Shown: positions 1,700 to 29,854 of the stretch, in pieces
Layout of the letters: each line of letters begins with the position of its first letter
How positions within the stretch are numbered: position 1 is the stretch's first letter
Source of the DNA: an uncultured Nitrospira sp.
Lineage (GTDB): Bacteria > Nitrospirota > Nitrospiria > Nitrospirales > Nitrospiraceae
Length of the DNA stretch: 46,108 nucleotides
Reading direction: 5' to 3'
Assembly: GCA_964552455.1 (NCBI GenBank)
Contig: CAZKHY010000001.1
Location: 1-46,108, forward strand
Made by a program: the position numbers and the translations under genes
The notes under the pieces: model-generated
What the model was told of the DNA's origin: nothing
Databases searched by the model: none
Seen by the model: only the letters and a program-made list of their open reading frames with translations

Positions 1700-3993
1700 A
1701 ACCAAGAGTGGACATCATCACCAAAGACCTCATCGCGCAGCATAACCTGACCGACGACGAGTACAAGAAGATCGTCGAAATCCTCGGGCGGGAGCCGAAC
1801 CTGACCGAGTTAGGCATGTTCTCGGTCATGTGGTCGGAGCATTGCTCCTACAAGAGCTCGCGGGTGCATCTGAAACGGCTCCCGACGACGGGGCCACGTG
1901 TCGTCCAAGGCCCCGGCGAAAATGCCGGTGCGGTGGACATCGGGGACGGTCTGGCGGCGGTCTTCAAGATGGAGTCCCACAACCATCCCTCTTTCATCGA
2001 GCCCTATCAAGGGGCGGCCACCGGCGTGGGGGGCATCTTGCGGGACATCTTCACGATGGGGGCCAGGCCGATTGCGCTCCTGGACTCGCTCCGGTTCGGG
2101 TTGCTGGATCGGCCCTTGAATCGCCACTTGTTCAAAGGCGTCGTGGCCGGCATCGCCGGCTACGGCAACTGCATGGGCGTGCCGACGGTCGGCGGTGAGG
2201 CGGTTTTCAACGACATCTACTCGCAGAACCCGCTTGTGAACGTCTTTTGCCTGGGGATCGCGAAGAAGGACAAACTGTTCAAAGGGCTGGCGGCCGGGGT
2301 CGGCAACCCGGTCATCTATGTCGGTTCCAAGACGGGCCGGGACGGCATTCACGGGGCCACGATGGCCTCGGACTCCTTCGATGAGGCTTCCGAAGCCAAG
2401 CGGCCGACCGTGCAAGTGGGCGATCCCTTCACTGAGAAACTGTTGCTGGAAGCTTGCTTGGAACTGATGGCCGGCGATCTGCTGGTCGGCATCCAGGACA
2501 TGGGGGCGGCGGGGTTGACCAGCTCGTCCTGCGAGATGGCCTCACGCGCCGGCAACGGCGTCGAGCTGGACCTGACTCATGTGCCGCGGCGTGAGCCCCA
2601 CATGACGCCCTACGAGCTGATGCTCTCGGAGTCGCAAGAGCGGATGCTCATGATCGCCAAGGAGGGGCGTGAGGAAGAGGTCCTGAAGATTTGCCGGAAG
2701 TGGGACTTGTCCGCGGCGGTAGTGGGGCGGGTGACGAGCGACGGGATCTTGCGCGTGAAGGACAACGGCAAGGTTGTGGCCGAGATTCCGGCCAAGGCGC
2801 TGGCGGAGGACGGCCCGCGCTACGAGCGGCCCAGCGCGCCACCCGCCTATCAGGACATGCTCCAGTCCCTCAACATGGACGTGCTGCCGGACGTGAAGGA
2901 TGCCACGGCGGTGCTCCATTCGCTGCTCGAATCGCCCACGATCGCGAGCAAAGCCTGGGTCTATCAACAGTATGACCATATGGTGCGCACCAACACGCTG
3001 GTCCGGCCCGGATCGGATGCGGCCGTGGTCCGGATCAAAGGGACGAACAAGGCCCTGGCGCTGACCACGGACTGTAACGGGCGCTACTGCGTGCTGAATC
3101 CCTACGTCGGCGCGACGATCGCGGTGGCCGAGGCTGCGCGGAATCTGGTTTGCTCCGGGGCCGAGCCGATCGGGCTCACGGACTGTCTGAATTTCGGCAA
3201 TCCCGAGCGGCCCGACATCATGTGGCAGTTTATTCTTTCGATCGAGGGGATCAAAGATGCCTGTGAGGCCTTCAACGTGCCGGTGGTCAGCGGCAACGTG
3301 AGCTTTTACAACGAGACCAACGGGCTCTCGATCTATCCCACGCCGATCCTGGGCATGGTCGGCTTGATCGAGCCGGCTGATCGGGCCATGACCCAATGGT
3401 TCAAGCAGGCGGGCGATGAGATCATTCTGCTGGGCAACACGAAGGAGGATTTGGGAGGGACCGAGTATCTGCGGGTGGTCCATCACAGGGAACAGGGCAG
3501 CCCGCCTGTGCTGAGTCTGGAAACTGAGAAAGCGCTCCACCACTGTGTGCTCGCGTTGATCCGGGAAGGCTTGGTCCAGTCGGCCCATGACTGCTCGGAC
3601 GGAGGCCTGGCTGTGGCCCTGGCCGAATGTTGTGTGGCTCATCCGGTAAGTTCATATTGGGAGGGAGGGGCGCGAAACGCGCCCCTCCCACACCCACCGC
3701 TCGGGGCTGTGGTAAGATTGACTGCGGGCCAACTGCGTCTGGATGCGCTGCTGTTCGGGGAGAGCCAGTCGCGTGTGGTCCTGTCGGTCAGCCCGGCCCA
3801 TCGCGAGACGGTGCTGCGCAAGGCCGGAGCGATGGGGGTTCCGGCGGCGGCGATCGGGACCGTGGGCGGCGAGCGGCTGGTGATCGACGTCGAGGCCGGC
3901 AAGCAGGCTGGTGCCTGCCGGATCGACGCGGATTTGAAGACCTTGCATGAGAGCTGGAGCAAGAGCCTGGAGCGGGCTCTTCAACAACAATGA
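1696..3993 (+). CDS. purL: Phosphoribosylformylglycinamidine synthase subunit PurL
   Basis: Contains [22 protein letters not shown] and other FGAM synthase II motifs. GTG 1696 overlaps the hepT stop (GTGA). The track ORF start at 1615 is a run-on into hepT; GTG 1708 is an alternative start. Confidence 0.9.
3663..3689. repeat. Perfect 12-bp GC hairpin inside purL (GGGAGGGGCGCG-AAA-CGCGCCCCTCCC)
   Basis: Read directly from the sequence. It lies in a ~60-nt segment (3640-3699, [20 protein letters not shown]) that interrupts the conserved ALAE...LGAxVxL region of PurL. Confidence 0.8.
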
Positions 3994-4062
3994 TGAATGC
4001 AGAATGCTGAACGCTGAATTGAAGAGGCTCCGCATTCATCATTCATCACTCATCATTCAGCA
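3991..4062. repeat. Heptamer-array hairpin element (family A: TGNTGAA arm / TTCANCA arm)
   Basis: Reads tgatgaa tgcagaa tgctgaa cgctgaa ttgaaga ggctccg cattcat cattcat cactcat cattcag ca. It spans exactly from the purL TGA to the purF ATG. Confidence 0.85.
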
Positions 4063-5469
4063 ATGCAACTAATTACCCCCGATAAATTCCACGACGAGTG
4101 CGCGGTCTTCGGCATTTACGGCCACAAGGAAGCGGCCAACCTGACCTACCTCGGTCTCTATGCCCTTCAGCACCGGGGGCAGGAGGGGACCGGCATCGTG
4201 TCCTCCGACGGCGAGCATTTCCACGTGGAAAAGGGCATGGGGCTCGTGGCCGATGTCTACTCGAAGACCGTGCTCAAACGCCTGCCCGGTCAGGTGGCCA
4301 TCGGACACAACCGCTACAGCACCGCCGGGGGCAACAACCTCAAGAACGTGCAGCCGCTGACCGTCAACTTCGCCTTCGGGAACCTGGCGCTGGCTCACAA
4401 CGGCAACCTGATCAATGCCCAGATGCTGCGGAACGAGTTGGAGGCCTACGGGGCGATCTTCCAGTCCTCGACCGACAGCGAGGTGATGATTCATCTGATC
4501 GCCCATTCCCGCGGCGATACCCTGTTGGCCCGAATCATTGACGCGTTGAGCCAGGTCCGGGGCGCTTTCTCGGTGGTTCTGTTGACGGACGGGGGCATCA
4601 TCGCCGCCAGAGACCCCCAGGGGTTCCGGCCCCTCTGCCTGGGGCGTCTGCGGGAGAGCTGGCTGGTGGCATCCGAGACCTGCGCCTTCGACCTGATCGG
4701 GGCCGAAGCGGTCCGTGAGATCGAACCGGGCGAACTGGTGATCCTGAATGACGCCGGCGTGACGAGCTACAAGCCCTTTACGAAAACCAAACCGGCCCTG
4801 TGCGTGTTTGAATATGTGTACTTCGCTCGGCCGGACAGCAAGATTTTCGGTGAACGGGCGGTCTACCTCACGCGCAAGGCCCTGGGGCGGCAGTTGGCCC
4901 AGGAGTCGCAGGTAAAGGCGGACATCGTGATCCCGGTGCCGGACTCAGGCGTGCCAGCGGCGCTCGGCTACTCGGAAGGCTCCGGCATCCCGTTCGAGAA
5001 CGGCCTCATCCGGAACCACTACATCGGCCGGACTTTCATCGAGCCGGAACAGTCCATCCGGCACTTCGGGGTGAAGATCAAGCTGAACGCGGTGCCGGAG
5101 GTGCTGGACGGCAAGCGCGTGGTCGTGGTGGACGATTCGATCGTACGGGGGACGACGAGCCGCAAGATCGTCAAAATGCTCCGGCATGCGGGCGCGAAGG
5201 AAGTGCACATGCGGATCAGCTCGCCCCCGATCGTCTCCCCCTGCTTCTACGGAGTCGATACGCCAACCAAGAAGGAGCTGATCGGCTCGAGCCACACGAT
5301 CCAGGAAATCAGGAAATACATCACGGCCGACAGCCTGGCCTACCTCAGCCTGGAAGGGATGCTCAAAGCCGCGCCTGGCAGTCCCGACCACTACTGCAAC
5401 GCCTGTTTCACGGAACAGTACCCCATCCCCTTCACCAAAGCCGAAGAACTGCAGTTGGGCCTTTTCTGA
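4063..5469 (+). CDS. purF: Amidophosphoribosyltransferase
   Basis: Contains the N-terminal catalytic Cys context (HDECAVFGIYG), the PRTase motif VVVVDDSIVRGTT and C-terminal Cys residues. Confidence 0.95.
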   Translation: MQLITPDKFHDECAVFGIYGHKEAANLTYLGLYALQHRGQEGTGIVSSDGEHFHVEKGMGLVADVYSKTVLKRLPGQVAIGHNRYSTAGGNNLKNVQPLTVNFAFGNLALAHNGNLINAQMLRNELEAYGAIFQSSTDSEVMIHLIAHSRGDTLLARIIDALSQVRGAFSVVLLTDGGIIAARDPQGFRPLCLGRLRESWLVASETCAFDLIGAEAVREIEPGELVILNDAGVTSYKPFTKTKPALCVFEYVYFARPDSKIFGERAVYLTRKALGRQLAQESQVKADIVIPVPDSGVPAALGYSEGSGIPFENGLIRNHYIGRTFIEPEQSIRHFGVKIKLNAVPEVLDGKRVVVVDDSIVRGTTSRKIVKMLRHAGAKEVHMRISSPPIVSPCFYGVDTPTKKELIGSSHTIQEIRKYITADSLAYLSLEGMLKAAPGSPDHYCNACFTEQYPIPFTKAEELQLGLF

Positions 5470-5549
5470 TCCGCCTCCGTTCGTTCTGTCTGTGCATCAT
5501 TGCTGTTGCCCCCGATTTTTTCGCCGTGCTAGGATAGTCGCATTAACAG

Positions 5550-5644
5550 TGCTGAATTGTGAGTGCTGAGTGATGAATGGAAGCACATGGAGGGACCGGG
5601 CCTCGCTCAATCAGCATTCATCACTCATCGTTCAGCATTTATGA
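5550..5644. repeat. Heptamer-array hairpin element (family A, second copy)
   Basis: Left arm is tgctgaa ttgtgag tgctgag tgatgaa; right arm is atcagca ttcatca ctcatcg ttcagca tttatga. 5615-5637 matches 4040-4062 at 22 of 23 nt. Confidence 0.85.
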
Positions 5645-7119: not shown

Positions 7120-7941
7120 ATGCTTCACACCTCCTCCGAACAGCTCAATCGCCAAGGCAACGAGCACTTCTCGCGCGGCTACTACACCGAAGCCTACGTC
7201 TGTTACGCCAAGGCGCTGGAGTGCGATCGCCTCAGCGGGGACCGGCGGGCGATGGCGGCGACCCTGGGCAACCTGGGCAACATCTGCGCCGTGAGCGGCC
7301 GGCGCGAGCAGGCCCAGGCTTATTACCAGGAAGTGCTGGAGCTGCAGAAAATCATGGGAGACGAGCGGGGCATCGGGACCACGCTCGCCAACCTGGGGAA
7401 CCTGCGCGCCGATGCGGGAGAATGGGAGCGGGCGCGGGCCTATTACCTGGAAGCGCTGGACATCATGCAGGGGACCGGCGACGAGGTGGGGCTGGCGGTG
7501 CTCTACTCCGATCTGGGGCTGGTGGCCCGTGAGACGGGCCAGTGCGACGAGGCCCTGCAGTATTACGAACGGTCGCTGGCCCTGATGCGCCGGCTGGGCA
7601 ACCAGGGCGGGATCGCGGACGCCTGGCGCATGATGGCGCGGACGTACCTGGTCCTCCGCAAGCACGAGGAAGCCCTGGCCTGTTGCCGGACGAGCCAGGC
7701 CGTGGCCGAGCGGGGCGGCGATGAGCTGCGGGCCGGCGGGGCGCGCTACGTGATGGCCCAGTGCTACGAAGAGCTGGGGCGGCTCAAAGAGGCGTCCCAG
7801 TTGCTGGAGCTGGTCGTCCTGATGGACCGGAAGTACCACCTGCCGAAGCTGGAGGAGAACACCAGGCGTCTTGCCCAGTTGCAGGCCCGGCTGGCCGAGT
7901 CCGGACAGGACCGGTCGTCGCAGGGGGAGTTGCGCGCATGA
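7120..7941 (+). CDS. Tetratricopeptide-repeat protein
   Basis: Shows repeated 40-aa units of the type A..LGNLG......G....A..YY...L. Confidence 0.8.
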   Translation: MLHTSSEQLNRQGNEHFSRGYYTEAYVCYAKALECDRLSGDRRAMAATLGNLGNICAVSGRREQAQAYYQEVLELQKIMGDERGIGTTLANLGNLRADAGEWERARAYYLEALDIMQGTGDEVGLAVLYSDLGLVARETGQCDEALQYYERSLALMRRLGNQGGIADAWRMMARTYLVLRKHEEALACCRTSQAVAERGGDELRAGGARYVMAQCYEELGRLKEASQLLELVVLMDRKYHLPKLEENTRRLAQLQARLAESGQDRSSQGELRA

Positions 7942-8387
7942 GCGGGCAGGAGGCCGTCACCCAGGCATGGGACTCAGCCCGCATCCTGCTGCGTCAGCGC
8001 GAGCCGGGACTCTACGAGCTGGAGCCGGGCGGAGCCTTGGCTCTTGACCTGGGCGACGAGGGCTGGCTGCTGGAGATCACCCCCGATGGGCGCCTGATCT
8101 GCCAGAACGGGATGGCCATGGACGACATCAAGAGCCTCCTGTCCGACGGCACGGCGGAGGACCTGGGTACGGATGAGCTGGCGAAGCAAGCCAAATACTA
8201 TCTGCAGCCCGCCGTCGCCAAGGTCAGGAAGGTGTTTCTCGGGGCCGGGTTCGAGGAGGCGACCGAGATGAATGATGCCTATGTGGCGGTGACGTTTCAA
8301 CGGGCGGTTGATCTCGGCAAGCCGGACGAAATCGTCCGGGCGATCCGTTGGTGCCGCCAGCAGGTTGGTGCGAAGCTGACAAGCTGA
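7938..8387 (+). CDS. Hypothetical protein (149 aa)
   Basis: ATG 7938 overlaps the TPR gene stop (ATGA). No family was recognised. Confidence 0.5.
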   Translation: MSGQEAVTQAWDSARILLRQREPGLYELEPGGALALDLGDEGWLLEITPDGRLICQNGMAMDDIKSLLSDGTAEDLGTDELAKQAKYYLQPAVAKVRKVFLGAGFEEATEMNDAYVAVTFQRAVDLGKPDEIVRAIRWCRQQVGAKLTS

Positions 8388-8466
8388 CAAGCATGAAAGC
8401 TGACGAGGGGGATGCCTGTTTCGTGATCTCTGCTATTGGTCAGCTTGGTTCCTTGTCAGCTTGACG
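8372..8466. repeat. Octamer-array inverted repeat (AAGCTGAC arm / GTCAGCTT arm)
   Basis: Left arm is aagctgac aagctgac aagcatga aagctgac; right arm is gtcagctt ggttcctt gtcagctt. The left arm starts inside the last codons of the 7938..8387 CDS. Confidence 0.8.
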
Positions 8467-8485
8467 CATGGGGCGAGGGTAGGCA

Positions 8486-9598
8486 ATGGCTCTTGACGGG
8501 TTTGCCACGGGTGAAGGCACGGGTCGGTATCGCGAGCGCATGGTCGCGGCCGGGCAGGCCCACGAGGGACATTTCCGGGAGGGGCCGGGGAAGCTGGCGC
8601 TCTCCTCGATCGGTCTCGGCACTTATCTGGGCGGGCATGATGAAGGGACGGACGCCCTGTATCTGGCCGCGACCAAGCAGGCGGTCGCGGCCGGCTGCAA
8701 CGTCATCGACAGCGCGATCAACTATCGCTGCCAGCGGAGCGAGCGGGTGATCGGGCGGGCCCTGGCCGAGTTGGTCCGTGACGGGACCTGCCGGCGCGAT
8801 GAAGTCCTGATTTCGACGAAGGGCGGCTTCATCCCCTATGACGGAGCGCCTCCGCGCGACAACGACGCCTATCTGCAACAGACCTTCGTCGTGCCCGGCA
8901 TCATCCGGACGACCGACGTGGTGGCGGGCTGCCACTGCATGACGCCGGCCTACCTTCGGCACCAGGTGAACGCCAGCTTGAGCAACCTGGGGCTGTCCTG
9001 CCTCGATCTGTACTACCTGCACAACCCGGAGATGCAACTGGAAGAGGTGTCGCAGGCTGAATTCATGGCGCGCATGCGCGCGGCCTTCGAAACGCTCGAA
9101 GAAGCCGTGTCGCAGGGCAAGCTGCGCCTGTACGGGACCGCCACCTGGAACGGCTATCGCGCCAGGCCCGGGTCCGGCGGCCATCTTTTACTGGAAGCGC
9201 TGGTGAAGCTGGCGTGGGAAGTGGCGGGCAAGGACCACCATTTCAAGGTCGTCCAGCTGCCCTACAACATCGGCATGCTCGAAGCCTTGGGCCAGCAGAC
9301 GCAGACGATGAACGGCGTGAAGGTCAGCCTGTTGGAGGCGGCCAAAGCCCTGGACATCTACGTCATGTCCAGCGCCTCGATTCTCCAGGGCCAGCTCAGC
9401 CGGAACCTGCCGGCCGAAGTCCGGGAGGTGCTGGGGGACGGGACCGACGCCCAACGCTCGATCCAGTTCGTCCGGTCCACACCCGGGCTGGGGACCGCCC
9501 TGGTCGGCATGAAGCAAGCCGAGCACGTCAAGGACAACCTGGCCGTCTCCAAACGAGCTCCCCTGCAGCCGGACCAGTTCGCACGGTTGTTCAAGTGA
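8486..9598 (+). CDS. Aldo/keto reductase family oxidoreductase
   Basis: Shows the AKR pattern (LGLGTY.G, IDSA..Y, LDLYYLHNP) at 370 aa. Confidence 0.85.
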   Translation: MALDGFATGEGTGRYRERMVAAGQAHEGHFREGPGKLALSSIGLGTYLGGHDEGTDALYLAATKQAVAAGCNVIDSAINYRCQRSERVIGRALAELVRDGTCRRDEVLISTKGGFIPYDGAPPRDNDAYLQQTFVVPGIIRTTDVVAGCHCMTPAYLRHQVNASLSNLGLSCLDLYYLHNPEMQLEEVSQAEFMARMRAAFETLEEAVSQGKLRLYGTATWNGYRARPGSGGHLLLEALVKLAWEVAGKDHHFKVVQLPYNIGMLEALGQQTQTMNGVKVSLLEAAKALDIYVMSSASILQGQLSRNLPAEVREVLGDGTDAQRSIQFVRSTPGLGTALVGMKQAEHVKDNLAVSKRAPLQPDQFARLFK

Positions 9599-10683
9599 CG
9601 AGGGGAGCAGCGGTTCGTCCTCAAGTCATCCGAAGCTTTGACGACTTCCGGGACGCCCTCTTTGCCTTCCGTTTTCCCCGCGTCGTCTTGACCGCCCTCG
9701 AGCTGGACCTCTTCACGGTCATAGGAAGCCGTTCCCGGACGATCCCGGTCCTGGCCAAGCGGCTGCGCGTGAGCCGGCGGGGGCTCGACATCCTTTGCCG
9801 GAACCTGGCCTGCGCAGGCCTCCTCAGAAAACAGGGCGCGCACTATCGGAACGGGAGCCTGGCCGGCACGATGCTCAATGCCAAACACAAAACCTTCCGG
9901 GGCGCCTATCTGGATCTGTTGCGCACCCAGTGGGACGACTGGTCCCAACTGACCGAGTCGGTCAAAAGCGGACGGCCTGTGGAGCACGAGGCGCCGGACG
10001 ACCCGACCTACCGGCGGCAGTTTAGCCGGGCCATGCACCAGCGGTCGCTTGAGGTGGCGCCTCACGTGGCTGCGCAGGTGGACCTGAGAGGGGCCAAGAC
10101 GCTGCTGGACTTGGGCGGCGGTCCTGGCACCTATGCGCTGGCCTTCCTGGCCAAGAACTCCAATCTGCGGGCGACCGTCTGCGATCGGGCTCCCGCGCTG
10201 GAGGTCGCCAAGGAGATCGCCGCCCCGCTCACGCAGGGCCGGCGACTGTCTTATCTGCCCCTGGACTTCATGAACCGGAGGATTCCCGGCCGGTATGACG
10301 TGATCTGGTACTCCAACGTCCTGCACATCTATTCACCGGCTGAAAATCAGCGGCTCTTTCGCAGGCTGGCGTCGGCTCTGACGCCCGGCGGGCGGCTCAT
10401 CATTCAGGACGCCTTTCTGCTGGATCGGGAGGGGCTGTACCCCCAGGAAGCCAATCTCTTTGCCGTCACGATGCTCCTGTTCACCGAAGGGGGGAACACC
10501 TATACGGCTCGTGAAACGACGGACTGGCTCCGTCGGGCCGGCTTTACAACGGTGCGCCGGATCAGCTTGCGGAAGGGGGCGGAGGATTGGGAGGGGGGGC
10601 TTCTGGAGGCGTCTCTTCCGAAGACGCAACCGGGCTCACGTCCAGGAAGCCGCGCCCGCCGAGTACGATCAGCAGGAAGTTGA
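9595..10683 (+). CDS. Class I SAM-dependent (O-)methyltransferase with N-terminal winged-helix dimerisation domain
   Basis: Contains the SAM motif LLDLGGGPGTYA, then RLIIQD. GTG 9595 overlaps the AKR stop (GTGA). The track ORF from 9214 is a run-on. Confidence 0.8.
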   Translation: MTRGAAVRPQVIRSFDDFRDALFAFRFPRVVLTALELDLFTVIGSRSRTIPVLAKRLRVSRRGLDILCRNLACAGLLRKQGAHYRNGSLAGTMLNAKHKTFRGAYLDLLRTQWDDWSQLTESVKSGRPVEHEAPDDPTYRRQFSRAMHQRSLEVAPHVAAQVDLRGAKTLLDLGGGPGTYALAFLAKNSNLRATVCDRAPALEVAKEIAAPLTQGRRLSYLPLDFMNRRIPGRYDVIWYSNVLHIYSPAENQRLFRRLASALTPGGRLIIQDAFLLDREGLYPQEANLFAVTMLLFTEGGNTYTARETTDWLRRAGFTTVRRISLRKGAEDWEGGLLEASLPKTQPGSRPGSRARRVRSAGS

Positions 10684-10990
10684 GCAGGCCGGTGGCGCCG
10701 CTCGTCATCAGGGTTTTCGACGAGGGTTCTGCACGGGTCAGGGCCTGGACGATGGTGGAGAGATCCAGGGCCAAGCCGATCGTTCCATACATGACGCTGG
10801 CCATCAGGACCCATCTGGCTCGCCCGAGCAGAAGCCCAGCCAGGATCAGCGGGAGCCAGAAGAGAAAGCCGTTCCAGGCGAGCTGGTGCCAGAGGGAGGC
10901 GAATGGCATGGCCCCCTGGATGATCCGCTGCAAGAAGGCCAGGACCACCAGTCCGATCAGCAGCAGAGCCAGGATGCGTCTCATGGTCAT
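10562..10990 (-). CDS. Small integral membrane protein
   Basis: About four hydrophobic helices follow MTMRRILALLLIGLVV. The C-terminal Pro-rich tail overlaps the convergent methyltransferase 3' end. Confidence 0.45.
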   Translation of the reverse strand: MTMRRILALLLIGLVVLAFLQRIIQGAMPFASLWHQLAWNGFLFWLPLILAGLLLGRARWVLMASVMYGTIGLALDLSTIVQALTRAEPSSKTLMTSGATGLLNFLLIVLGGRGFLDVSPVASSEETPPEAPPPNPPPPSAS

Positions 10991-11091
10991 GCGGGGACTA
11001 TAGCGGAGGTCCCCCATCGGGACAAGAGAGGCTCGGTTGTTTTCTGATCGACGGATGGAGCGTGCCCTTGCAGTCTCCTACGGCAGGACGT

Positions 11092-11752: not shown

Positions 11753-11799
11753 AACGGGTTTCGTGGGCCTTTGCACGCAGTTCCGTGAAGGGCCTTGCC

Positions 11800-13503: not shown

Positions 13504-13514
13504 GGCCACACAAA

Positions 13515-16984: not shown

Positions 16985-16999
16985 CGGGAGGGACTGTTA

Positions 17000-19231: not shown

Positions 19232-20683
19232 ATGGCCCCGCCGCGGCTCGTGATCGCCGGCACGTCCAGCGGGGTCGGCAAGACCACGGTCACCCTGGCG
19301 CTTCTGGCCGCCTTGAAGGCACGGGGGCGAAGGGTCCAGTCGTTCAAGGCGGGGCCGGATTACATCGATCCCGGACACCATGCGATGGCGACCGGCCGGC
19401 CGTCCCGTAACCTGGACGGCTGGATGCTGGGGCCGGCCAGGAACCGGGAGATTTTCTTTCGCGCCGCGGCCGATGCGGACCTTTCGATCGTCGAGGGGAT
19501 GATGGGACTCTTCGACGGGAGTGCTCCGACCAGCGAAGTCGGCAGCACGGCCGAACTGGCCAAACAGCTCAAGGCCCCCGTGCTGCTCGTCATCGACGGG
19601 AGCGCCATGGCCCGCTCGGCTGCGGCCATGGCCTCGGGCTACGCCCGGTTCGATCCGGCGCTCAACGTCGCCGGGGTCCTGTTCAACCGGGTCGGCAGCG
19701 AGGGCCACTATCGGTTGCTCAAGGAAGCGGTGGAGGCCGATACTGACCTGGCCGTGGTCGGGTATCTCCGTCCCGATGCGGAACTGACAATCGGGGATCG
19801 CCACCTTGGCCTGGTGACGGCGATCGAACAAGGGGCGAGCGATCTCTATCGGAAACTGGGACAGGCGGCAGCCGAGACGGTTGATCTGGACCGGATCGAA
19901 GCGCTGGCCCGGTCGGCGGCAGAGGACGTGAACGGTGAAAAGTTGGACGTGAAAGGCGGGCAAATGCAGGCGGGAACTAGTTTCGGTTCCCCTGCCGTTC
20001 ATGTCTCACCGCTTACGTCTCACGAGCGGGTTCGGGTCGGCATCGCCTACGATGCCGCGTTTTGTTTTTACTATCCCGACAATCTTGAACTGTTGGAAGC
20101 GGCAGGGGGCGAACTGGTCAGGTTTTCTCCCGTGAGGGACGGGGTGTTGCCCGAGGTGGATTTGCTCTATCTGGGCGGGGGGTACCCGGAGCTATACGGC
20201 GAAGCGCTGGACCGGAATCAATCCATGAGGAGGTCGATCCGGACCTTTGCAGACAGAGGGGGCACGATCTATGCCGAATGCGGCGGCATGATGTACTTGA
20301 CGCAAGCCATACGGGACTTCGAAGGCCGCACCCATCAGATGGTCGGACTGTTTCCGGCCGAGGCCGTCATGCGCAAGCCGGGCCTGACGCTGGGGTACAG
20401 GGAAATCGAGATCACAAAACCATGCCCCCTGGGAACGTCCGGGATCAAGGCCCGCGGCCACGAGTTCCATTATTCGTCGCTGACGCCCACCGGGCCGCTC
20501 GAATACGTCTGTTCGGTCACGGACGCCAAAGGGACGATGCGGTCGCCGGATGGCCTGGTGAAAGGCAACTGCGTCGCCCTCTATGCCCACCTTCATTTCG
20601 GAAGCCAGCCCGACCTTGCGCGCGCGCTGGTGGCCGCCGCCCGCGCCGGCCGTGAACGGGCGGCAGCCGGCGGCACGACATGA
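19232..20683 (+). CDS. cbiA: Cobyrinate a,c-diamide synthase
   Basis: Contains the P-loop AGTSSGVGKTT, KAGPDYIDP and the GATase part (YAECGGMMYL, HEFHYS). ATG 19208 is an alternative start. Confidence 0.9.
   Translation: MAPPRLVIAGTSSGVGKTTVTLALLAALKARGRRVQSFKAGPDYIDPGHHAMATGRPSRNLDGWMLGPARNREIFFRAAADADLSIVEGMMGLFDGSAPTSEVGSTAELAKQLKAPVLLVIDGSAMARSAAAMASGYARFDPALNVAGVLFNRVGSEGHYRLLKEAVEADTDLAVVGYLRPDAELTIGDRHLGLVTAIEQGASDLYRKLGQAAAETVDLDRIEALARSAAEDVNGEKLDVKGGQMQAGTSFGSPAVHVSPLTSHERVRVGIAYDAAFCFYYPDNLELLEAAGGELVRFSPVRDGVLPEVDLLYLGGGYPELYGEALDRNQSMRRSIRTFADRGGTIYAECGGMMYLTQAIRDFEGRTHQMVGLFPAEAVMRKPGLTLGYREIEITKPCPLGTSGIKARGHEFHYSSLTPTGPLEYVCSVTDAKGTMRSPDGLVKGNCVALYAHLHFGSQPDLARALVAAARAGRERAAAGGTT
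19925..20022. repeat. 14-heptamer imperfect palindrome embedded in frame in the cbiA interdomain linker
   Basis: Reads gacgtga acggtga aaagttg gacgtga aaggcgg gcaaatg caggcgg gaactag tttcggt tcccctg ccgttca tgtctca ccgctta cgtctca. It encodes DVNGEKLDVKGGQMQAGTSFGSPAVHVSPLTSH. Confidence 0.8.
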
Positions 20684-21528: not shown

Positions 21529-22218
<690 letters not shown>

Positions 22219-22240
22219 CCATTGTGCAGGGAGAACGCGG

Positions 22241-22825
22241 ATGCGGATCACCAAGGTCTATACACGGACGGGGGACCAGGGAAAAACGAGGCTTGCCGGC
22301 GGACAGCAAGTTTGGAAAGACAGCCTGCGCGTGGAAACCTACGGGACCGTGGATGAGGTGAACGCGTTGGTGGGTCTGGTGCGGGTCTTCAATGGGGACC
22401 AGGCGGAATCAGAGGCCCGGGAACGACTGGAGCAAAGCCTCCGCTGGGTCCAGAACAAGCTGTTCGACGTGGGGGGAATCCTGGCGACGGCGCCGGGACA
22501 GAAATTCAAAAATATGCCCCGGGTGACCGGCAAGGACGTGACCAACCTGGAACGGCTGATCGATGCCTGCCAGAAGGACCTGGCGCCCCTCAAGGAATTC
22601 ATCCTGCCCGGCGGAGGCAAGGTCTCCGGTCTTCTCCACCATGCAAGGACCGTCTGCCGGAGGGCCGAGCGGACCTGCGTCAAGCTGGCCCGGGAGGAGC
22701 CGGTGGATCCGGCCATCGTGAAATTTCTGAACCGCCTCAGCGACGCACTCTTCGTGTTGGCCCGCTGGGCCGGAAAGATGAACGGAGAGGCGGAATTTCT
22801 CTGGGAGCGGGACGTGAAATCGTGA
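22241..22825 (+). CDS. pduO: ATP:cob(I)alamin adenosyltransferase, PduO type
   Basis: The N-terminus is MRITKVYTRTGDQGKT, followed by FILPGG...HHARTVCRRAER. Confidence 0.85.
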   Translation: MRITKVYTRTGDQGKTRLAGGQQVWKDSLRVETYGTVDEVNALVGLVRVFNGDQAESEARERLEQSLRWVQNKLFDVGGILATAPGQKFKNMPRVTGKDVTNLERLIDACQKDLAPLKEFILPGGGKVSGLLHHARTVCRRAERTCVKLAREEPVDPAIVKFLNRLSDALFVLARWAGKMNGEAEFLWERDVKS

Positions 22826-22886
22826 AGCGCACCTCGTGAAGCGTCTCTCGCGGAATGGTTCGGACCTTCACGAACGACGGACGACG
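22816..22886. repeat. Heptamer-array element (family B) spanning the pduO stop and the cobQ 5' region
   Basis: Left arm is gaaatcg tgaagcg cacctcg tgaagcg tctctcg; right arm is cttcacg aacgacg gacgacg. Confidence 0.75.
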
Positions 22887-22908
22887 AAGGGTGGCAGCGA
22901 AAACTCTC

Positions 22909-24438
22909 ATGATCCAGGGGACCGCTTCGCACGTGGGGAAATCCGTGCTCGTGGCGGCCTTCTGTCGGCTGTTCGCACGACGCGGCATCAAGGTGGCTCC
23001 GTTCAAGGCGCAGAACATGTCGAATAACTCCTTCGTCACGCCCGACGGGAAGGAGATCGGGCGGGCCCAGGCGGTCCAGGCGGCGGCCTGCCGGCTGGCG
23101 CCCCGGACCGACTTCAACCCCGTGCTGATCAAGCCGGAAGGGCCTTGCGGCGCGCAGCTGGTGCTGAACGGGGCGGTGGCGGGCAAGTTGATGACCAGCG
23201 ATTTCGGCCGGGTCCGGCGCGACGGGTTTCAGTCGGTGCGGGAAGCCTTCGGACGTCTGAGGGAAGAATTTGGCCTGGTCATCCTGGAAGGGGCCGGCAG
23301 CCCGGCCGAGATCAATTTGAGGGAGCAGGACATCGTCAACATGAGGATGGCCCGGGAAGCCGAGGCGCCGGTGCTGCTGGTGGGGGACATTGATCGTGGC
23401 GGGGTCTTTGCGGCGTTGGTCGGGACCATGGCCCTGCTGACCGTCGAGGAGCGGAAATACGTCAAGGGTTTCCTGATCAACAAGTTTCGCGGGGATGAAG
23501 CGTTGCTCGCGCCCGGCATCGGGATGGTGGAGGCACAGATGGGCCTCCGGTGTCTGGGCGTGATCCCTCATTGGGGTGACCTTCAGGTGCCGCAGGAAGA
23601 TTCTCTCAGTTGGGACGACCAGTCTGCGGAATCTCTGCCGCCTCACGTTTCACACCGGGAACCCGTTGCTTCTTCTCGTGCAACGGGTGCCACTCACGGG
23701 GTCTTGGCGATCGGTGTGGCCGATGTGCCGACCATCTCGAATTTCACCGACTTCGATGCCCTGGCCCGCGAACCGGATGTCGAGCTGATCCGGGTGACGG
23801 GTACGACCAGCCGCGAGCTGGATGCGCTGATCCTGCCTGGCAGTAAGAACACCCCTGAGGCTTTGCGGTTCATCAAGGCTCGCGGGATCGACTCGGTGGC
23901 CAGACGGGTCTTGGCCGATGGGGGCATTGTGGCCGGGCTCTGCGGCGGATTCCAGGTGCTGGGGCGGACGATCCTGGACCCTGAAGGGATCGAGTCTGAC
24001 GAGGCGGAGCTGGACGGGTTGGGGTTGCTTGATACGGTGACGACGTTTGAGCCGGAGAAGGTGACGGTCGCGGTGACCGGCATCCATCGGGAGACCGGCT
24101 GTCCGGTTCAGGGTTATGAAGTCCACATGGGGCGAACCAGGCTTGGAAAAAGTGCGCATCCCTTGTTGAAGATCCGGCGGGCCGGTGATACAGGGGGGCA
24201 CGAAGAAGGGGCGGTCTCGGCGGACGGGAAGGTGTTCGGCACCTACCTGCATGGACTCTTCGATGCGCCGGAGTTCCGACGCCTGTTCCTCGATCGCCTG
24301 AGGGAAGCACGGGGCTGGTCCCCGCTTGCCTCAAGGAGCCATGTCACGCTGGACCAGCAATTGGATCGGCTGGCTGATTTTATCCAAAAACATGTCAATT
24401 TGCCGGCCATTGAGGCGATCATCGAACAGGGGGTGTGA
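22909..24438 (+). CDS. cobQ: Cobyric acid synthase
   Basis: Contains MIQGTASHVGKS, EGAGSPAEINL and the GATase part (GLCGGFQVLG, YLHGLF). Alternative starts are 22855 and 22891. Confidence 0.9.
   Translation: MIQGTASHVGKSVLVAAFCRLFARRGIKVAPFKAQNMSNNSFVTPDGKEIGRAQAVQAAACRLAPRTDFNPVLIKPEGPCGAQLVLNGAVAGKLMTSDFGRVRRDGFQSVREAFGRLREEFGLVILEGAGSPAEINLREQDIVNMRMAREAEAPVLLVGDIDRGGVFAALVGTMALLTVEERKYVKGFLINKFRGDEALLAPGIGMVEAQMGLRCLGVIPHWGDLQVPQEDSLSWDDQSAESLPPHVSHREPVASSRATGATHGVLAIGVADVPTISNFTDFDALAREPDVELIRVTGTTSRELDALILPGSKNTPEALRFIKARGIDSVARRVLADGGIVAGLCGGFQVLGRTILDPEGIESDEAELDGLGLLDTVTTFEPEKVTVAVTGIHRETGCPVQGYEVHMGRTRLGKSAHPLLKIRRAGDTGGHEEGAVSADGKVFGTYLHGLFDAPEFRRLFLDRLREARGWSPLASRSHVTLDQQLDRLADFIQKHVNLPAIEAIIEQGV
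23641..23703. repeat. Period-7 segment with a 9-bp perfect stem (ACCCGTTGC/GCAACGGGT) in frame in the cobQ interdomain linker
   Basis: Reads cctcacg tttcaca ccgggaa cccgttg cttcttc tcgtgca acgggtg ccactca. It encodes PHVSHREPVASSRATGATH. Confidence 0.6.
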
Positions 24439-25052
24439 TGATGCGGACGCGGCGACACAGCGAAGGGGCGACTCGGCGCTCTCCGCGCCCCCGCGTCCCC
24501 GCGTCTCCGCGTCGGGGGGCGCGGAGCTGCCTGATTCTGGTCATCGGGGGGGCTTCGTCGGGAAAGAGCGCGGCAGCCTTGGACTTGGCCGGAAAGGGTC
24601 TCCGCAAAGGAACGGCGCGAGCCTTCGTGGCGACCGGACAGCCGCTGGATGAAGAGATGGCCGACCGGATCAGACTCCACCAGGCCTCGCGAGGCGCCGA
24701 GTGGACGACCGAGGAGGTGCCGGTCGATCTGGTTGGCTGGTTTGAGAAGCGGGGCCAGGACTATCAGGCGGTCATCCTGGACTGTCTGACTCTGTGGCTG
24801 AGCAACCTCAAGGAGCGGGGGATTCCCGACAGCCGGGTGCCCGATCTGGTTGCCGCGCTCCTGCTGGCGATCAGGGGGAGCAGAGCCCGGGTCGTGATCG
24901 TGACCAACGAGCTGGGGCTGGGGCTCGTGCCGCTGGAGGCCTCAGCCCGACAATTCAGGGATCTGGCCGGCAAAGTGAACCAGCAAGTGGCCCGCGAGGC
25001 GGACGAAGTCTATTTCGTCGTCAGCGGCCTGCCGGTTCAATTGAAGCAATAA
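24435..25052 (+). CDS. cobU: Adenosylcobinamide kinase / adenosylcobinamide-phosphate guanylyltransferase
   Basis: Contains the P-loop GGASSGKS and ILDCLTLWLSN. It has a ~30-aa Arg/Pro-rich N-terminal extension. The start overlaps the cobQ stop. Confidence 0.85.
   Translation: MMMRTRRHSEGATRRSPRPRVPASPRRGARSCLILVIGGASSGKSAAALDLAGKGLRKGTARAFVATGQPLDEEMADRIRLHQASRGAEWTTEEVPVDLVGWFEKRGQDYQAVILDCLTLWLSNLKERGIPDSRVPDLVAALLLAIRGSRARVVIVTNELGLGLVPLEASARQFRDLAGKVNQQVAREADEVYFVVSGLPVQLKQ
24481..24526. repeat. Octamer array (CCGCGNCN x4) closed by a perfect 12-bp inverted repeat, inside the cobU 5' coding region
   Basis: CTCCGCGCCCCC (24481-24492) pairs with GGGGGCGCGGAG (24515-24526). CGCG recurs every 8 nt. 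Confidence 0.8.
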
Positions 25053-25076: not shown

Positions 25077-26132
25077 ATGAACCTGCAACACACGATAGGG
25101 GCCATCGAACCCGCGGACCGCACCTGTCTGAAACGCGCCCAAGCCCGCTTGGACCGGCTGACCAAGCCCGTCGGAAGCCTGGGACGGCTGGAAGAATTGG
25201 CGGCCCGGTATGTGGCGATGACCAGGGAGGAGCGACCGAAGGTGCCCCGCGCCGCGATCTTCACCTTCGCAGCCGATCACGGCGTGACGAGCGAAGGGGT
25301 CAGCGCCTATCCCAGCGCCGTGACGCCTCAGATGGTCCTGAATTTTCTGCGGGGCGGGGCGGCCGTCAACGTCCTGGCTTCCCACGTGGGCGCCGAGGTC
25401 CGCGTGGTGGATATCGGGGTGGCCCACGAGTTCGGCCCCTTGCCCAATCTGATCGCCAGAAAAGTGGCGCATGGAACGAACAATTTCTCCCAAAGGCCGG
25501 CCCTGAGTCGCGCCGACGCCGTCAAGGCGCTCGAGGTGGGGATCGAGCTGGCTTCTGAAGCGGTGCAGGGCGGCATTGGCCTGATCGGGACCGGGGACAT
25601 GGGCATCGGCAATACGACGCCGAGCGCCGCCATCACGGCGGTGATGACGGGGCAGCCGGTGGCGGCCGTGACTGGTCGCGGCACGGGGATCGACGAGGAA
25701 GGCTACCTCCGGAAGGTGGCGGTGATCGAAAGGGCGCTGGCGGCGCATCGTCCTGACCCCGGCGATCCCATCGACGTGCTGGCGAAGGTCGGCGGGCTGG
25801 AGATTGCCGGTCTGGCCGGGGTGATCCTGGGGGCTGCCGCCCGTCGGGTCCCCGTCGTCTTGGACGGCTTCATCGCCGGCGCGGCCGCGCTGGTCGCCGC
25901 CGGGCTTCAACCCCGTTGCTGTGACTACCTGATTGCATCCCATCGGTCGGTCGAACGGGGCCATCAGGCGGCCTTGGATCGGCTGGGGCTCAAGCCGTTG
26001 CTCGACTTGGACCTGCGGCTCGGCGAGGGAACCGGGGCTTGCCTGGGGATCAGCTTGGTCCAGGCCGGCATCAAGATCCTGACCCAGATGGCGACTTTCG
26101 ATGAAGCCGGGGTCTCCGAGCGTGACACGTGA
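25077..26132 (+). CDS. cobT: Nicotinate-nucleotide--dimethylbenzimidazole phosphoribosyltransferase
   Basis: Contains LTKP.GSLGRLE, GDMGIGNTT and LRLGEGTGA. Confidence 0.9.
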   Translation: MNLQHTIGAIEPADRTCLKRAQARLDRLTKPVGSLGRLEELAARYVAMTREERPKVPRAAIFTFAADHGVTSEGVSAYPSAVTPQMVLNFLRGGAAVNVLASHVGAEVRVVDIGVAHEFGPLPNLIARKVAHGTNNFSQRPALSRADAVKALEVGIELASEAVQGGIGLIGTGDMGIGNTTPSAAITAVMTGQPVAAVTGRGTGIDEEGYLRKVAVIERALAAHRPDPGDPIDVLAKVGGLEIAGLAGVILGAAARRVPVVLDGFIAGAAALVAAGLQPRCCDYLIASHRSVERGHQAALDRLGLKPLLDLDLRLGEGTGACLGISLVQAGIKILTQMATFDEAGVSERDT

Positions 26133-26219
26133 GAGGTGAAAAGGAAGTCGTGAAAGGTGAAGCGACCGGTACTGAAACGGAACTTGTGCGTCCTCTAGCT
26201 TGCGGTTCACGTTCCTTCC
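26129..26219. repeat. Heptamer-array hairpin (GTGAARN arm / TTCACGT TCCTTCC arm) at the cobT-cobS junction
   Basis: Left arm is gtgagag gtgaaaa ggaagtc gtgaaag gtgaagc; right arm is ttcacgt tccttcc. Confidence 0.75.
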
Positions 26220-26956
26220 TGATCGCCTGGCATTTCCTGACCGCCGTTCCGCTCAGCCGTCACCACCACGATCCTTCGGCGCGGGAACTGGCCCAGTCCA
26301 TGGGCTGGTATCCGCTGGTCGGCCTGGTCTTGGGCGGAGCGCTGGCCGTGAGCGATCTCCTGCTCGCGCAGGTCTTCTCGGATGCGGTGGTGAACGGGCT
26401 CCTCCTCGTGCTGCTGGTTGTCCTCACCAGGGGCTTGCACCAGGATGGCCTGGCCGATACGTTGGACGGGCTTGCCGGAGGGCGGAGCCCCGACGAGCGG
26501 CTCGCCATCATGCGTGACGGGCGGATCGGGGCGATCGGGGCCACCGGCCTGATCCTGGCCTTGGGGCTCCGGTACGTAGGACTCATGGAGTTGCCGGACG
26601 GGGCGCGGCTGCCGCTGCTTCTCTGCATGCCGGCGGTCGGCCGATGGGCGATGGTGGTGGGATCTGTTTCGGCTCCCTACGCAAGGGCGGGCGGGGGGCT
26701 GGCCCAGCCCTTTGTGCAGCACCTCTCGATGGTGCAGGTGTTGTGGGCGACCCTGCTGCTGGGCGGGGCGCTCCTCTGGGCCATGGGCCCGGCCGGGGCC
26801 TTGGGAAGCCTGGTTCTGCTGGCGGCCGTCGCACGTGCTTCGACCGCCTTCGCTCGCCGGTTCCTGGGGGGGATCACCGGCGATACGCTGGGCGCGACCA
26901 ACGAAGTGACCGAAGTCCTGTTTCTGCTGGCGGCTCCGGTATTGCTCGCGGCGTGA
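26129..26956 (+). CDS. cobS: Adenosylcobinamide-GDP ribazoletransferase (cobalamin synthase)
   Basis: Multi-TM protein containing FLT..P, HQDGLADT.DG and GDTLGA. GTG 26129 overlaps the cobT stop. GTG 26186 is an alternative start that would exclude most of the repeat element. Confidence 0.85.
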   Translation: MRGEKEVVKGEATGTETELVRPLACGSRSFLIAWHFLTAVPLSRHHHDPSARELAQSMGWYPLVGLVLGGALAVSDLLLAQVFSDAVVNGLLLVLLVVLTRGLHQDGLADTLDGLAGGRSPDERLAIMRDGRIGAIGATGLILALGLRYVGLMELPDGARLPLLLCMPAVGRWAMVVGSVSAPYARAGGGLAQPFVQHLSMVQVLWATLLLGGALLWAMGPAGALGSLVLLAAVARASTAFARRFLGGITGDTLGATNEVTEVLFLLAAPVLLAA

Positions 26957-29000: not shown

Positions 29001-29719
29001 GCCGGTCCTCGGCGTCCTTTAAGACCGGGTTCCGTCTGAATGACCGGACCCTGATGATTGATTTGGGGAGGTCCAGAAGAGTGCTGTCCTCAGCCCCGCG
29101 GGGAGGAGGGTTCGTGCGGGCCCGGTACCTGCTGAATCATCAAGTGCCGGCTCATCCAATCTCAAGTCATTCGTCCAACCGCCGATGGAGTGATCCGGCC
29201 CGTTACCTCGGCCGTGTGGCCTCAAGCCTCGGAGCCGACCGTCGCGTCGTCGCCCTCATGACCGCGGTCCCGCTGAAGCAACTGGTGGTCTTGCGTGAGG
29301 AAACGGCCGGCCTGTGGGTCGAAGGGTTCTTTACGGTCGGCGTGACGAATGCGGTGCGGGCGGGAGAGCTGGTCGGTCTTGTTCAAGACGAGCAACGCAG
29401 ACGTGCTCCCGGTACCATTAACATTATCCTGGTCACCAATGCCTACTTGGCGGCCCCGGCCATGGTGGGGGTGGTCCAAGTGGCGACGGAAAGCAAAACG
29501 GCTTCGTTGCTGGAGGCAGGGGTGCCGAGCTGGACCGGTGCACCGGGCGCGACCGGCACCGGCACCGATGCCCTCGTGGTCGCCAGCGGCACGCGTGGAA
29601 ACGGGCCGACGCTTCGCTACAGCGGGACCCATACCAAGATCGGTGAACTGGTCGGAAGGCTCGTCAGTCGCGGCGTCGAACAAGGCCTTGCCAAATCGTT
29701 GCGTTGGTCCAAGCGATAA
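28997..29719 (+). CDS. cbiZ: Adenosylcobinamide amidohydrolase
   Basis: Shows a CbiZ-like pattern (VSSAPRGGG, MTAV, GTINIILVTN, ATGTGTDALVVA). GTG 28997 overlaps the cobD stop. Confidence 0.7.
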   Translation: MSRSSASFKTGFRLNDRTLMIDLGRSRRVLSSAPRGGGFVRARYLLNHQVPAHPISSHSSNRRWSDPARYLGRVASSLGADRRVVALMTAVPLKQLVVLREETAGLWVEGFFTVGVTNAVRAGELVGLVQDEQRRRAPGTINIILVTNAYLAAPAMVGVVQVATESKTASLLEAGVPSWTGAPGATGTGTDALVVASGTRGNGPTLRYSGTHTKIGELVGRLVSRGVEQGLAKSLRWSKR

Positions 29720-29770
29720 AAGCCTGTTCCCTCAGCCAACTGCCCTTGCCCGCTGGCTCTCAGAGCCCCA

Positions 29771-29854
29771 CGCTGAACGCGGAATAATGAATGCCGGACG
29801 GTCTGGTTCGGCACTCTGTCGGTCGTCGTTCCGCGTTCCTCATTCATGCTTGCT
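29771..29854. repeat. Heptamer-array element related to family A
   Basis: Left arm is cgctgaa cgcggaa taatgaa tgccgga; right arm is cgttccg cgttcct cattcat gcttgct. Confidence 0.7.

Follow-up and report, generated by a model that had tools for sequence, protein, structure and literature searches.

Genes and repeat elements of the locus

The stretch of DNA analysed here, hereafter the window, comprises 46,108 nucleotides (nt) from an uncultured Nitrospira sp. (contig CAZKHY010000001.1, assembly GCA_964552455.1) and has a G+C content of 64%. A Pfam scan of its open reading frames (ORFs) showed that it carries purL, purF and an AhpC-family gene. It also contains a chemotaxis operon and a cluster for cobalamin salvage and late biosynthesis with two cobalamin riboswitches, which comprises btuF-like, ABC and TonB receptor genes, cbiA, cobA/cobO, genes for a nitroreductase and a PduO-type adenosyltransferase, cobQ, cobU, cobT, cobS, cbiB, cobD and cbiZ. 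The nearest relatives of the CobQ and CbiA proteins of the window are Nitrospira/Nitrospirota proteins with 68-84% identity. Dispersed through this locus is the subject of our study, a non-coding palindromic repeat element of ~70-100 bp whose arms each consist of 3-6 degenerate units of 7 nt in tandem (8 nt in two copies). The usual unit core is NTGA in the left arm and TCAN in the right one, and the copies fall mainly into family A, with the unit order AATGATG-AATGCGG-AATGATG..., and family B, with the units CGTGAAG / CGTATCT.

We found that these period-7 arrays, followed by their complement, occur far above chance. Taken together with their distribution in other genomes, this leads us to consider it rather probable that they constitute a dispersed palindromic repeat made of heptamers, comparable to repetitive extragenic palindromic (REP) sequences or MITEs (miniature inverted-repeat transposable elements), which is copied or converted between loci and kept only where its hairpin is harmless.

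Period-7 arrays and their complementary arms

The spacing between occurrences of TGAA, TTCA, GTGA and TCAC in the window shows sharp peaks at 7, 14 and 21 nt. Strict lag-7 identity scans and a consensus-unit pairing detector recovered only the most perfect copies, since no more than 3-4 of the 7 positions of a unit are conserved, and arrays were then detected through core motifs that recur in phase, the controls being other periods. Arrays with three or more TGA[AG] or [CT]TCA motifs in phase were counted 5+5 times at period 7, compared with 0-2 at periods 5, 6 and 8-11, even though periods 6 and 9 are the ones that codon structure should promote. The window has three cases, and 53 kb of close Nitrospira loci have nine, in which a left (TGA) array has a right (TCA) array after it within 120 nt; such pairs were seen at period 7 only, and the observed arrays were reached by no dinucleotide shuffle. 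Tandem Repeats Finder (TRF) delimited period-7 arrays at 3989-4019, 4033-4059, 5548-5576, 13656-13672, 16865-16907, 17156-17173 and 22870-22888, and period-8 arrays at 8373-8404 and 24483-24513. Furthermore, when the inverted repeats of the 46 kb are ranked by length, these elements take the first five places; their pairing in several registers, shifted by 7 or 8 nt, is the signature of periodic arms. The resulting density is ~12 copies in the 46 kb of the window, and 15 arrays in 20 kb of the related Nitrospira locus L082.

The possibility that nothing special lies here, only chance periodicity in GC-rich sequence together with ordinary variable linkers and riboswitch stems, retains a negligible probability. 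It draws on the failure of strict scans beyond the best copies and on the 4 of 12 listed copies that fold no better than shuffles, and it is refuted by the period controls, by the shuffles and by the rank of the elements among the inverted repeats. In addition, 1.19 Mb of cob loci from other phyla, analysed as a control, contained no period-7 excess and no array pairs, which indicates a lineage-specific rather than a universal phenomenon, and the riboswitches of a distant Nitrospira (L001) have plain short loops. These results uphold the original prediction in describing a repeat family, and also in its distinction from CRISPR arrays, which have repeats of 24-48 nt with unique spacers of similar length: the units here are of 7-8 nt, contiguous and without spacers, and a CRISPR array is thus ruled out.

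Anatomy of the individual elements

The family A element at 3989-4062 (units AATGATG / CATTCAT) shows period 7 in both arms by TRF, and its 29-nt arms are 79% complementary. It fills the entire spacer between the purL stop (TGA 3991-3993, within unit 1) and the purF ATG (4063), with no Shine-Dalgarno sequence upstream of that ATG, and differs from the family A consensus derived from metagenome copies at 10 of 40 positions on both arms, compared with at least 16 for shuffles. Folding against dinucleotide shuffles, the source of all fold z-scores given here, qualifies it as a moderate hairpin (3986-4064, z -2.1). The end of purL is a double stop, TGA TGA, and a mini-ORF, ATG CAG AAT GCT GAA CGC TGA, comes directly after it in the left arm (3991-4017); more generally, ATG and TGA recur in several frames of family A arrays, and the consensus can be read as MMN... 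and NDECGMMNDE. The second family A element, at 5548-5642, lies upstream of the AhpC/TSA-family gene (ATG 5659), with TRF period 7, 25-nt arms that are 80% complementary, 12-13 of 40 mismatches to the consensus (shuffles at least 16) and a strong fold (5546-5642, z -4.5). The identity of 22 of 23 nt that had been claimed between 4040-4062 and 5615-5637 in these two copies was confirmed. A third hairpin, at 29771-29854, follows cbiZ by ~50 nt, where the cob operon ends, and folds strongly (29768-29856, z -3.1) with weak heptamer periodicity. It is possibly a decayed family A copy: its 14 of 40 mismatches to the consensus are marginally better than shuffles (at least 16), and it has no exact block of 16 nt or more in common with the metagenome copies.

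Three of the strong hairpins belong to family B. The element at 13603-13679 (CGTGAAG / CTTCACG) occupies, according to the Rfam alignment, the apical loop of cobalamin riboswitch 1 (13509-13746; fold of 13600-13680, z -4.1), and the one at 17092-17173, the longest inverted repeat of the window with 32-nt arms, occupies that of cobalamin riboswitch 2 (16978-17242; fold of 17090-17176, z -5.0). The third, at 19925-20022 on the plus strand, is translated in frame (DVNGEKLDVKGG...HVSPLTSHE) within the interdomain linker of CbiA (fold of 19922-20026, z -5.2). The same architecture is seen with octamers at 8372-8466 (unit AAGCTGAC / GTCAGCTT; TRF period 8, 4 copies), where 25-nt arms that are 84% complementary pair in registers 8 nt apart (fold of 8368-8470, z -3.6).

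The remaining copies are incomplete. On the plus strand at 16864-16912 there is a one-armed array of ~6 heptamers (ACGTGAA, AGGTGAA ...; TRF period 7, 6.1 copies) for which no complementary arm was found; it begins at the stop of the ABC ATPase gene (TGA 16868-16870), and an unrelated hairpin (16913-16950) comes directly after it. At 22816-22888, where the PduO-type adenosyltransferase gene (stop 22823-22825) meets cobQ, lies a degenerate family B element whose left arm, CGTGAAGCG...CTCGTGAAGCGTCTCTCG, is one mismatch away from the family B 15-mer and whose right arm retains 2.7 copies at TRF period 7. A remnant with the units CTCACGT, TTCACAC ... CTCACGG (23641-23703, plus strand) lies in the interdomain linker of CobQ, and an octamer array of CCGCGTCC (24481-24526; TRF period 8, 3.9 copies) at the cobQ/cobU junction. 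Finally, the family B-type element at the cobT/cobS junction (26102-26219) has an in-phase TGA array at 26102-26160 that contains the cobT stop (TGA 26130-26132), and a right arm that is down to 1-2 units. None of these last four sites gave a significant hairpin (22812-22890, z +0.3; 23638-23706, z -1.6; 24440-24530, z -0.5; 26124-26222, z +0.8), and each of them has a clear element at the matching site in L082. The list of 12 copies in the original prediction therefore stands in part, with seven hairpins (z -2.1 to -5.2) and one one-armed array, while the other four are only remnants. An empty site is also present: from the nitroreductase (BluB-like) stop to the ATG of the adenosyltransferase gene (22216-22244, plus strand) there is an ordinary 23-nt spacer with a Shine-Dalgarno sequence.

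Positions in which the elements are tolerated

In the spacers, the stop codon of the upstream gene usually lies within the first units of the left arm, as for purL, the ABC gene, cobT and ORF 7761-8387, whose stop is the TGA of the second unit of the octamer element. In 13 of 26 strand views of Nitrospira elements, and in 63 of 120 of metagenome loci, the array or the 10 nt before it contain the end of a long open frame; about half of all strand views corresponds to an upstream stop on one side of nearly every paired element. The start of the downstream gene often lies 0-20 nt past the right arm of the paired elements.

In both riboswitches the element stands in place of the 4-6-nt apical loop of the GCCACUG...GGGAAGG hairpin, as an insert of 72 nt (riboswitch 1) or 85 nt (riboswitch 2) relative to the Rfam model. 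This loop is a peripheral place in which an extra helix simply extends a stem. The arms of the two riboswitch elements are identical over 21 of 21 and 30 of 30 nt, in agreement with the 21-nt and 30-nt blocks reported previously for this stretch, and the riboswitch cores that surround them are clearly less alike.

The protein-coding copies lie between domains. In CbiA (cobyrinate a,c-diamide synthase) the element encodes residues 281-313, between the Pfam domains at 56-235 (CbiA, nucleotide-binding) and 318-509 (GATase_3, glutamine amidotransferase), and in CobQ it falls between Pfam CbiA (residues 18-239) and GATase_3 (286-473). Across 22 homologs, the CbiA linker is the most variable part of the protein, ranging from 0 to ~38 residues in three sequence types. 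The tolerance inside essential genes that had been proposed was thus overstated, as the hosts are interdomain linkers of two cobalamin amidases; the more general description, heptameric tandem repeats combined with a REP-like or Rickettsia-type palindrome that can sit inside genes, was borne out. With a period of 7, every third unit would put a TGA in frame; the CbiA unit due to do so reads TTG in the window and TTA in the related loci L081 and L082, giving a conserved Leu. In-frame stops have been purged from the element within the CbiA linker. The family A consensus has one open frame owing to its GCGG unit, and L083 (P0014 group) translates its CbiA linker in exactly that frame. Stop codons in all frames were considered as a defining property of the elements and rejected, since the family A consensus is open in that frame and some orthologous elements have no TGA.

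As a consequence of these placements, the elements shift gene start and stop calls, lengthen cobalamin riboswitches by 70-85 nt and add variable peptides to enzymes. In Nitrospira, which is a key group of nitrifiers, all three effects are misleading for annotation and alignment.

Turnover among Nitrospira relatives

Syntenic Nitrospira loci (L081, L082, L083/L084, L004, L001 and L002) were compared with the window. Related genomes carry elements at matching sites, with 7+8 arrays in the 20 kb of L082, and the unit differs between them: CGTGAAG/GGTGAAA in the window, GGTGACG and GGTGATG in L082, and AGTGACN, GCTGAAG and AGGCAGN in L083. The unit type changes between genomes, yet both arms of each element remain complementary, and in an alignment of eight riboswitch-loop elements five base pairs have changed on both sides. 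This covariation of the arms indicates that the hairpin is what is maintained.

The divergence of the elements is uneven. The window is 81% identical overall to L081, its closest relative, and 81-87% identical in the riboswitch core and the genes on the flanks. Identity rises to 90% in the array that follows the ABC gene and falls to 54% in the riboswitch 2 element (built of GGTGACN units in L081) and to 51% in the CbiA linker element. If such segments were ordinary coding or linker sequence, as the original prediction had allowed, conservation would be expected at the amino-acid level; the CbiA segment is instead hypervariable, and the nucleotide identity of the segments to L081 is 51-54%, versus 81-87% in the flanks.

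The presence/absence polymorphism that had been anticipated was also found. One CbiA subclade has a linker with either a GTGA-type (B-type) or an ATGAATG-type (A-type, read as LNAECGMMNDELL...SSFSVQRSAF) element, and other CbiA lineages have a linker without any element. At the adenosyltransferase/cobQ junction, L082 and L004 have strong GTGATGN hairpins; L082 carries in addition a five-unit GTCACNC array at the CobQ linker site and a GTGACNG / CGTCACG heptamer hairpin at the cobQ/cobU junction. The cobT/cobS junction holds a full element in L082 and none in L083, where the cobT stop and the cobS start overlap as GTGA. Conversely, the nitroreductase/adenosyltransferase junction, empty in the window, contains a family A element in L082, L004 and L083. 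These site, unit and empty-site data contradict the reading as ordinary linkers and reveal turnover and replacement besides inheritance.

Part of this picture would also be expected from purely local simple sequence repeats, in which slippage favours 7-nt units, local inverted duplication provides the second arm and the likeness between copies is convergence. Slippage has been proposed as the cause of heptamer excess (Mrazek 2007, as excerpted in PMC4679880 and PMC4692102). Orthologous Nitrospira sites do differ in the number of units, the array after the ABC gene has been inherited vertically with its 90% identity to L081, a one-armed array exists (16864-16912), and the GTGA overlap of cobT and cobS in L083 lies where other genomes have GTGA-based arrays. 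Local slippage accounts less well for the swap of unit type at the same site between close relatives and for the identical arms of two riboswitches with differing cores. In the near-identical loci L108 and L184, where a clean indel of one 7-nt unit was sought, a 6-nt indel was seen instead.

Copies in other phyla and in tailed phages

Additionally, we searched metagenome contigs with a 19-nt pattern from the family A right arm. The pattern occurs in at least 120 contigs, with G+C contents of 0.27 to 0.71 among the matches listed; 60 array pairs were detected among the contigs listed, and the left arm AATGATGAATGCGGAATGATGAATGATGAA (at most 4 substitutions) is also present on 80 family A contigs among the matches listed. 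In L087, from Pyrinomonadaceae (Acidobacteriota), five consecutive spacers are filled by family A hairpins, each from stop codon to start codon. The genes that these spacers separate (7202-14269) are functionally unrelated, encoding an RsbR-like protein, a SpoIIE-type phosphatase, a histidine kinase, a Mur ligase, a DICT-domain protein and a phosphate acetyltransferase, and most of the downstream starts have no Shine-Dalgarno sequence. Other family A contigs belong to Pyrinomonadaceae (L104) and Clostridium sp. (L090), and in a RefSeq plasmid of Spirosoma (Bacteroidota) an unannotated 91-nt spacer is filled by a heptamer hairpin in the order TAA, hairpin, 6 nt and ATG. The element inside an ORF of L083 has an exact 24-nt left-arm block, including the GCGG unit, in common with contigs that were picked by the right arm only. 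Acidobacteria-type contigs hold, besides, other very long hairpins of 100-220 nt (L200 85-256; L087 3888-4109 and 12185-12302), sub-threshold against generic microRNA-precursor models, which look like further, different palindromic repeat families.

The family B right arm, searched in IMG/VR, was found on 39 contigs, which are genuine structural modules of tailed phages with tail sheath, portal, major head, adaptor and terminase genes. The left-arm 15-mer GTGAAGCGTATCTCG, which is the sequence at window position 17105 and, with one mismatch, at 22836, lies within 80 nt in 11 of 43 family B phage matches, and the riboswitch 2 element has an exact 24-nt block, TCGTGAAGCGTATCTCGTGAAGCG, in common with phage contig L243. 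The layout in phages is stop, hairpin, Shine-Dalgarno sequence and ATG, adjoining tail-sheath and major-head genes. Contigs L242, L243, L253, L255 and L245 have family B hairpins in their structural operons, on either side of the tail-sheath gene in L242 and after the major-head gene in L253. Phages could carry these repeats between hosts. When deposited phage genomes were searched by BLAST with a family B element, nothing matched, for which the low-complexity filter is possibly responsible.

The occurrence of the same arm sequences in Nitrospirota, Acidobacteriota, Bacteroidota and tailed phages argues for copying and not for slippage alone. Unrelated loci, and different phyla too, have their variant units in one and the same order (AATGATG-AATGCGG-AATGATG-...-AATTA in family A, CGTGAAG alternating with CGTATCT in family B), and exact blocks of 24 nt lie outside the pattern searched. 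With this evidence, we regard an origin of the elements as local repeats only as unlikely, roughly one chance in a handful.

Origin and possible role of the elements

The reading that we favour, a dispersed palindromic heptamer repeat, would operate as follows. An element would be copied or converted between loci, after which its arrays would turn over fast while the arms stay complementary, for which slippage and hairpin-templated correction are assumed. Selection would leave elements only where a 20-35-bp hairpin does no harm, that is, in three permissive places: the stop-to-start spacer between co-directional genes, the apical loop of a peripheral riboswitch stem and the interdomain linker of a protein. 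Within an operon, the transcribed hairpin would punctuate the mRNA, either as a barrier at 3' ends or as a site for a double-strand-specific nuclease. Since the upstream stop lies in the 5' foot and the next start 0-20 nt past the 3' foot, the element could also tie downstream initiation to upstream termination. Judging by its sequence and placement, the element probably acts as an intercistronic RNA hairpin, and where it adjoins the major-head and tail-sheath genes of phages, adjustment of expression ratios would be a fitting role. Should the stop-hairpin-start geometry be functional, operons would have in it a simple and widespread means of fixing the ratios at which their genes are expressed.

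Several observations weigh against this reading. Among the window ORFs scanned with Pfam there is no transposase or other mobilising gene, and a tblastn search with an approximate IS200 TnpA query found no match in the window. Elsewhere, the same query matched only an IS200-like TnpA fragment in L195 and two cyanobacterial loci, with no systematic association; the L195 fragment (26-259; 42% identity to the query) lies ~2 kb from a family A element and is a single case. Comparison of filled and empty sites showed no target-site duplication or conserved flank, and the loops are not conserved between copies, unlike those of typical MITEs. Four window copies no longer fold significantly. Many sites are common to the Nitrospira genomes, so that vertical inheritance accounts for much of what is seen. 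Some of the cross-phylum resemblance could be convergent, as periodicity inflates similarity and a pattern was used to gather the outside copies. With regard to a role in RNA, only 15 of 21 elements have a better fold in the sense than in the antisense strand (p = 0.05), a marginal bias that is confounded by GC skew, and the minimum-energy fold of 3986-4064 leaves the purF start unpaired.

An alternative view of the same geometry is a cis-regulatory RNA signal, in which NTGA units 7 nt apart bind an oligomeric RNA-binding protein and the hairpin is the regulated structure, modelled on HutP/TRAP antitermination or on S1/CsrA-type translational control. HutP recognises triplets spaced 7 nt apart, and the 3-4-nt core is invariant at that period in elements that stand directly upstream of starts, often without a Shine-Dalgarno sequence. 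A comparable proposal has been made for TAACTGA repeats in Beggiatoaceae (PMC4679880). However, this kind of control would be meaningless in ORFs and in the apical loops of riboswitches, where elements also lie; relative to genes, family B is found in either orientation; several phyla and phages carry the elements; some orthologous elements have no TGA at all (AGGCAGN in L083, CCGCGTCC in the window); and no candidate protein was identified. We therefore find this explanation improbable. A more far-reaching version of the favoured reading, an undescribed class of heptamer-array hairpins that spreads actively across phyla, is carried by phages and is used as intercistronic punctuation that gates or couples downstream translation and sets mRNA processing or stability in operons, those for late phage genes included, can be put forward only tentatively, at about one chance in four.

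Other features of the window

The elements are not spread evenly. In the chemotaxis operon (31300-39800; CheW, MCP, CheA-like and more CheW genes) a heptamer element is present at 0 junctions, unlike the cob cluster, which indicates that element density is very uneven along the genome. A non-periodic inverted repeat (29977-30058), with 19-nt arms that are 89% complementary and a 44-nt loop, is located between the end of the cob operon and a Tll0287-like gene. Upstream of riboswitch 1, a 526-residue ORF (11800-13380, minus strand) has no Pfam match, and the equivalent position of L082 holds a 490-residue gene, also without Pfam hits. The first part of the window (1-2000) has a G+C content of 51%, compared with ~64% elsewhere, and contains an AbiTii (abortive-infection) domain split across the adjacent ORFs 58-570 and 576-959, which looks like an acquired defence gene broken by a stop or frameshift.

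Comparison with known repeat classes

Several classes could be set aside. Intrinsic terminators are ruled out, as no T run follows any right arm and several elements lie inside ORFs or riboswitch aptamers. Integron attC sites were rejected because inspection by eye revealed no RYYYAAC/GTTRRRY cores and because the elements are flanked by conserved genes of operons. The elements do not fit MITEs either: rather than terminal repeats around a conserved interior, they have near-identical arms and loops that vary in sequence and length, and the combination of a terminal inverted repeat with a target-duplication signature, proper to MITE-like repeats, was not found here. In Rfam, only the two cobalamin riboswitches of the window pass threshold and no family covers the elements; the outside copies gave only sub-threshold matches to generic long-hairpin microRNA-precursor models.

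Rickettsia palindromic elements (RPE) are palindromic repeats of ~100-150 bp that are tolerated in protein genes as an in-frame peptide in a permissive region; they are not made of tandem heptamers and are known only from Rickettsia. The CbiA and CobQ copies resemble them in that a palindromic repeat forms an extra in-frame peptide segment in such a region.

REP sequences are short imperfect palindromes present in high copy between co-directional genes, for which a role as hairpins at mRNA 3' ends has been proposed; an adjacent ORF frequently takes its stop codon from the end of a REP, and there are copies wholly in ORFs with the frame intact (PMC3733652, PMC6006769). Like REP, bacterial interspersed mosaic elements (BIME) and REP doublets forming hairpins (REPIN), the elements described here are palindromic and dense, provide stop codons and have copies within genes that keep the reading frame. 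They differ in having no GTAG/GTGG or CGTC foot tetranucleotide, their feet (AATGATG..., GGTGGCGTGG..., AAGCTGAC...) having no common tag, and in arms that have an internal period of 7 nt and far exceed a single REP stem in length. A REP-associated tyrosine transposase (RAYT, a Y1 HUH transposase) was not found among the window ORFs scanned against Pfam, which represent 46 kb of the genome. As the GTAG/CGTC tag is absent and an association with a RAYT would be a matter for the genome beyond the 46-kb window, we liken the elements to REPs and do not file them as such. A further lead, compared by description only, is given by the class 3 Y1 transposases of Acidobacteria and Planctomycetes, with 'atypical secondary structures', a CnGA foot and ~600 copies (PMC3733652, PMC6006769); the sequences of our families are absent from the supplements of the HUH transposase paper.

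Among long simple sequence repeats, it is heptamers that show the strongest over-representation in many bacteria (Mrazek 2007, to the extent reported in PMC4679880 and PMC4692102), and heptamer repeats are known from Nostoc as GGGGA(C/T)T or short tandemly repeated repetitive (STRR) sequences (PMC4692102). The TAACTGA repeat of Beggiatoaceae, cyanobacteria and Bacteroidetes is a stop-containing heptamer, present in 2-6 repeats a few nt upstream of starts in spacers without canonical ribosome binding sites, and patchy across phyla with no evident transfer mechanism (PMC4679880). Its sets are direct in 169 cases and indirect in one (PMC4679880), whereas the elements studied here have another unit and form hairpins.

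The literature searched by organism and by literal sequence, which is incomplete, yielded no description of family A or B. Nevertheless, and contrary to the original prediction that no described class could be matched, a precedent exists in the heptamer repeats of Xanthomonas, which include convergent inverted pairs by stop codons (PMC4692102). Its genomes have ~185 GGGAATC arrays each, mostly of ~4 units, of which 70-75 are in convergent pairs able to form stem-loops; the arrays lie mostly between co-directional ORFs, at most 50 bp from or overlapping a stop codon, and 83% occupy the same site in sister species, with length and sequence changed and the singular or paired type usually kept (PMC4692102). 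The elements of the window likewise consist of head-to-tail 7-nt units in co-directional spacers at or overlapping stop codons, at sites that are occupied in related genomes with varying length and sequence, and seven copies are convergent stem-loop arrays, a form that 16864-16912 and the four degenerate copies do not have. They differ from the Xanthomonas arrays in also occupying riboswitch loops and ORFs in frame, and in arms that keep a higher-order sequence of variant units common to phyla and phages. Furthermore, their units are not G-rich, which rules out G-quadruplex repeats here, and the G-quadruplex explanation of the Xanthomonas arrays cannot apply. For the over-representation of heptamers in bacteria, these non-G-rich, co-varying elements offer a tractable case, of interest for a distribution that spans phyla and phages, for hairpins placed between a stop and a start, and because riboswitches and enzymes tolerate them. 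Both families are akin to known palindromic and heptamer repeats rather than categorically new, and the inverted GGGAATC heptamer pairs of Xanthomonas (PMC4692102) are their closest precedent.

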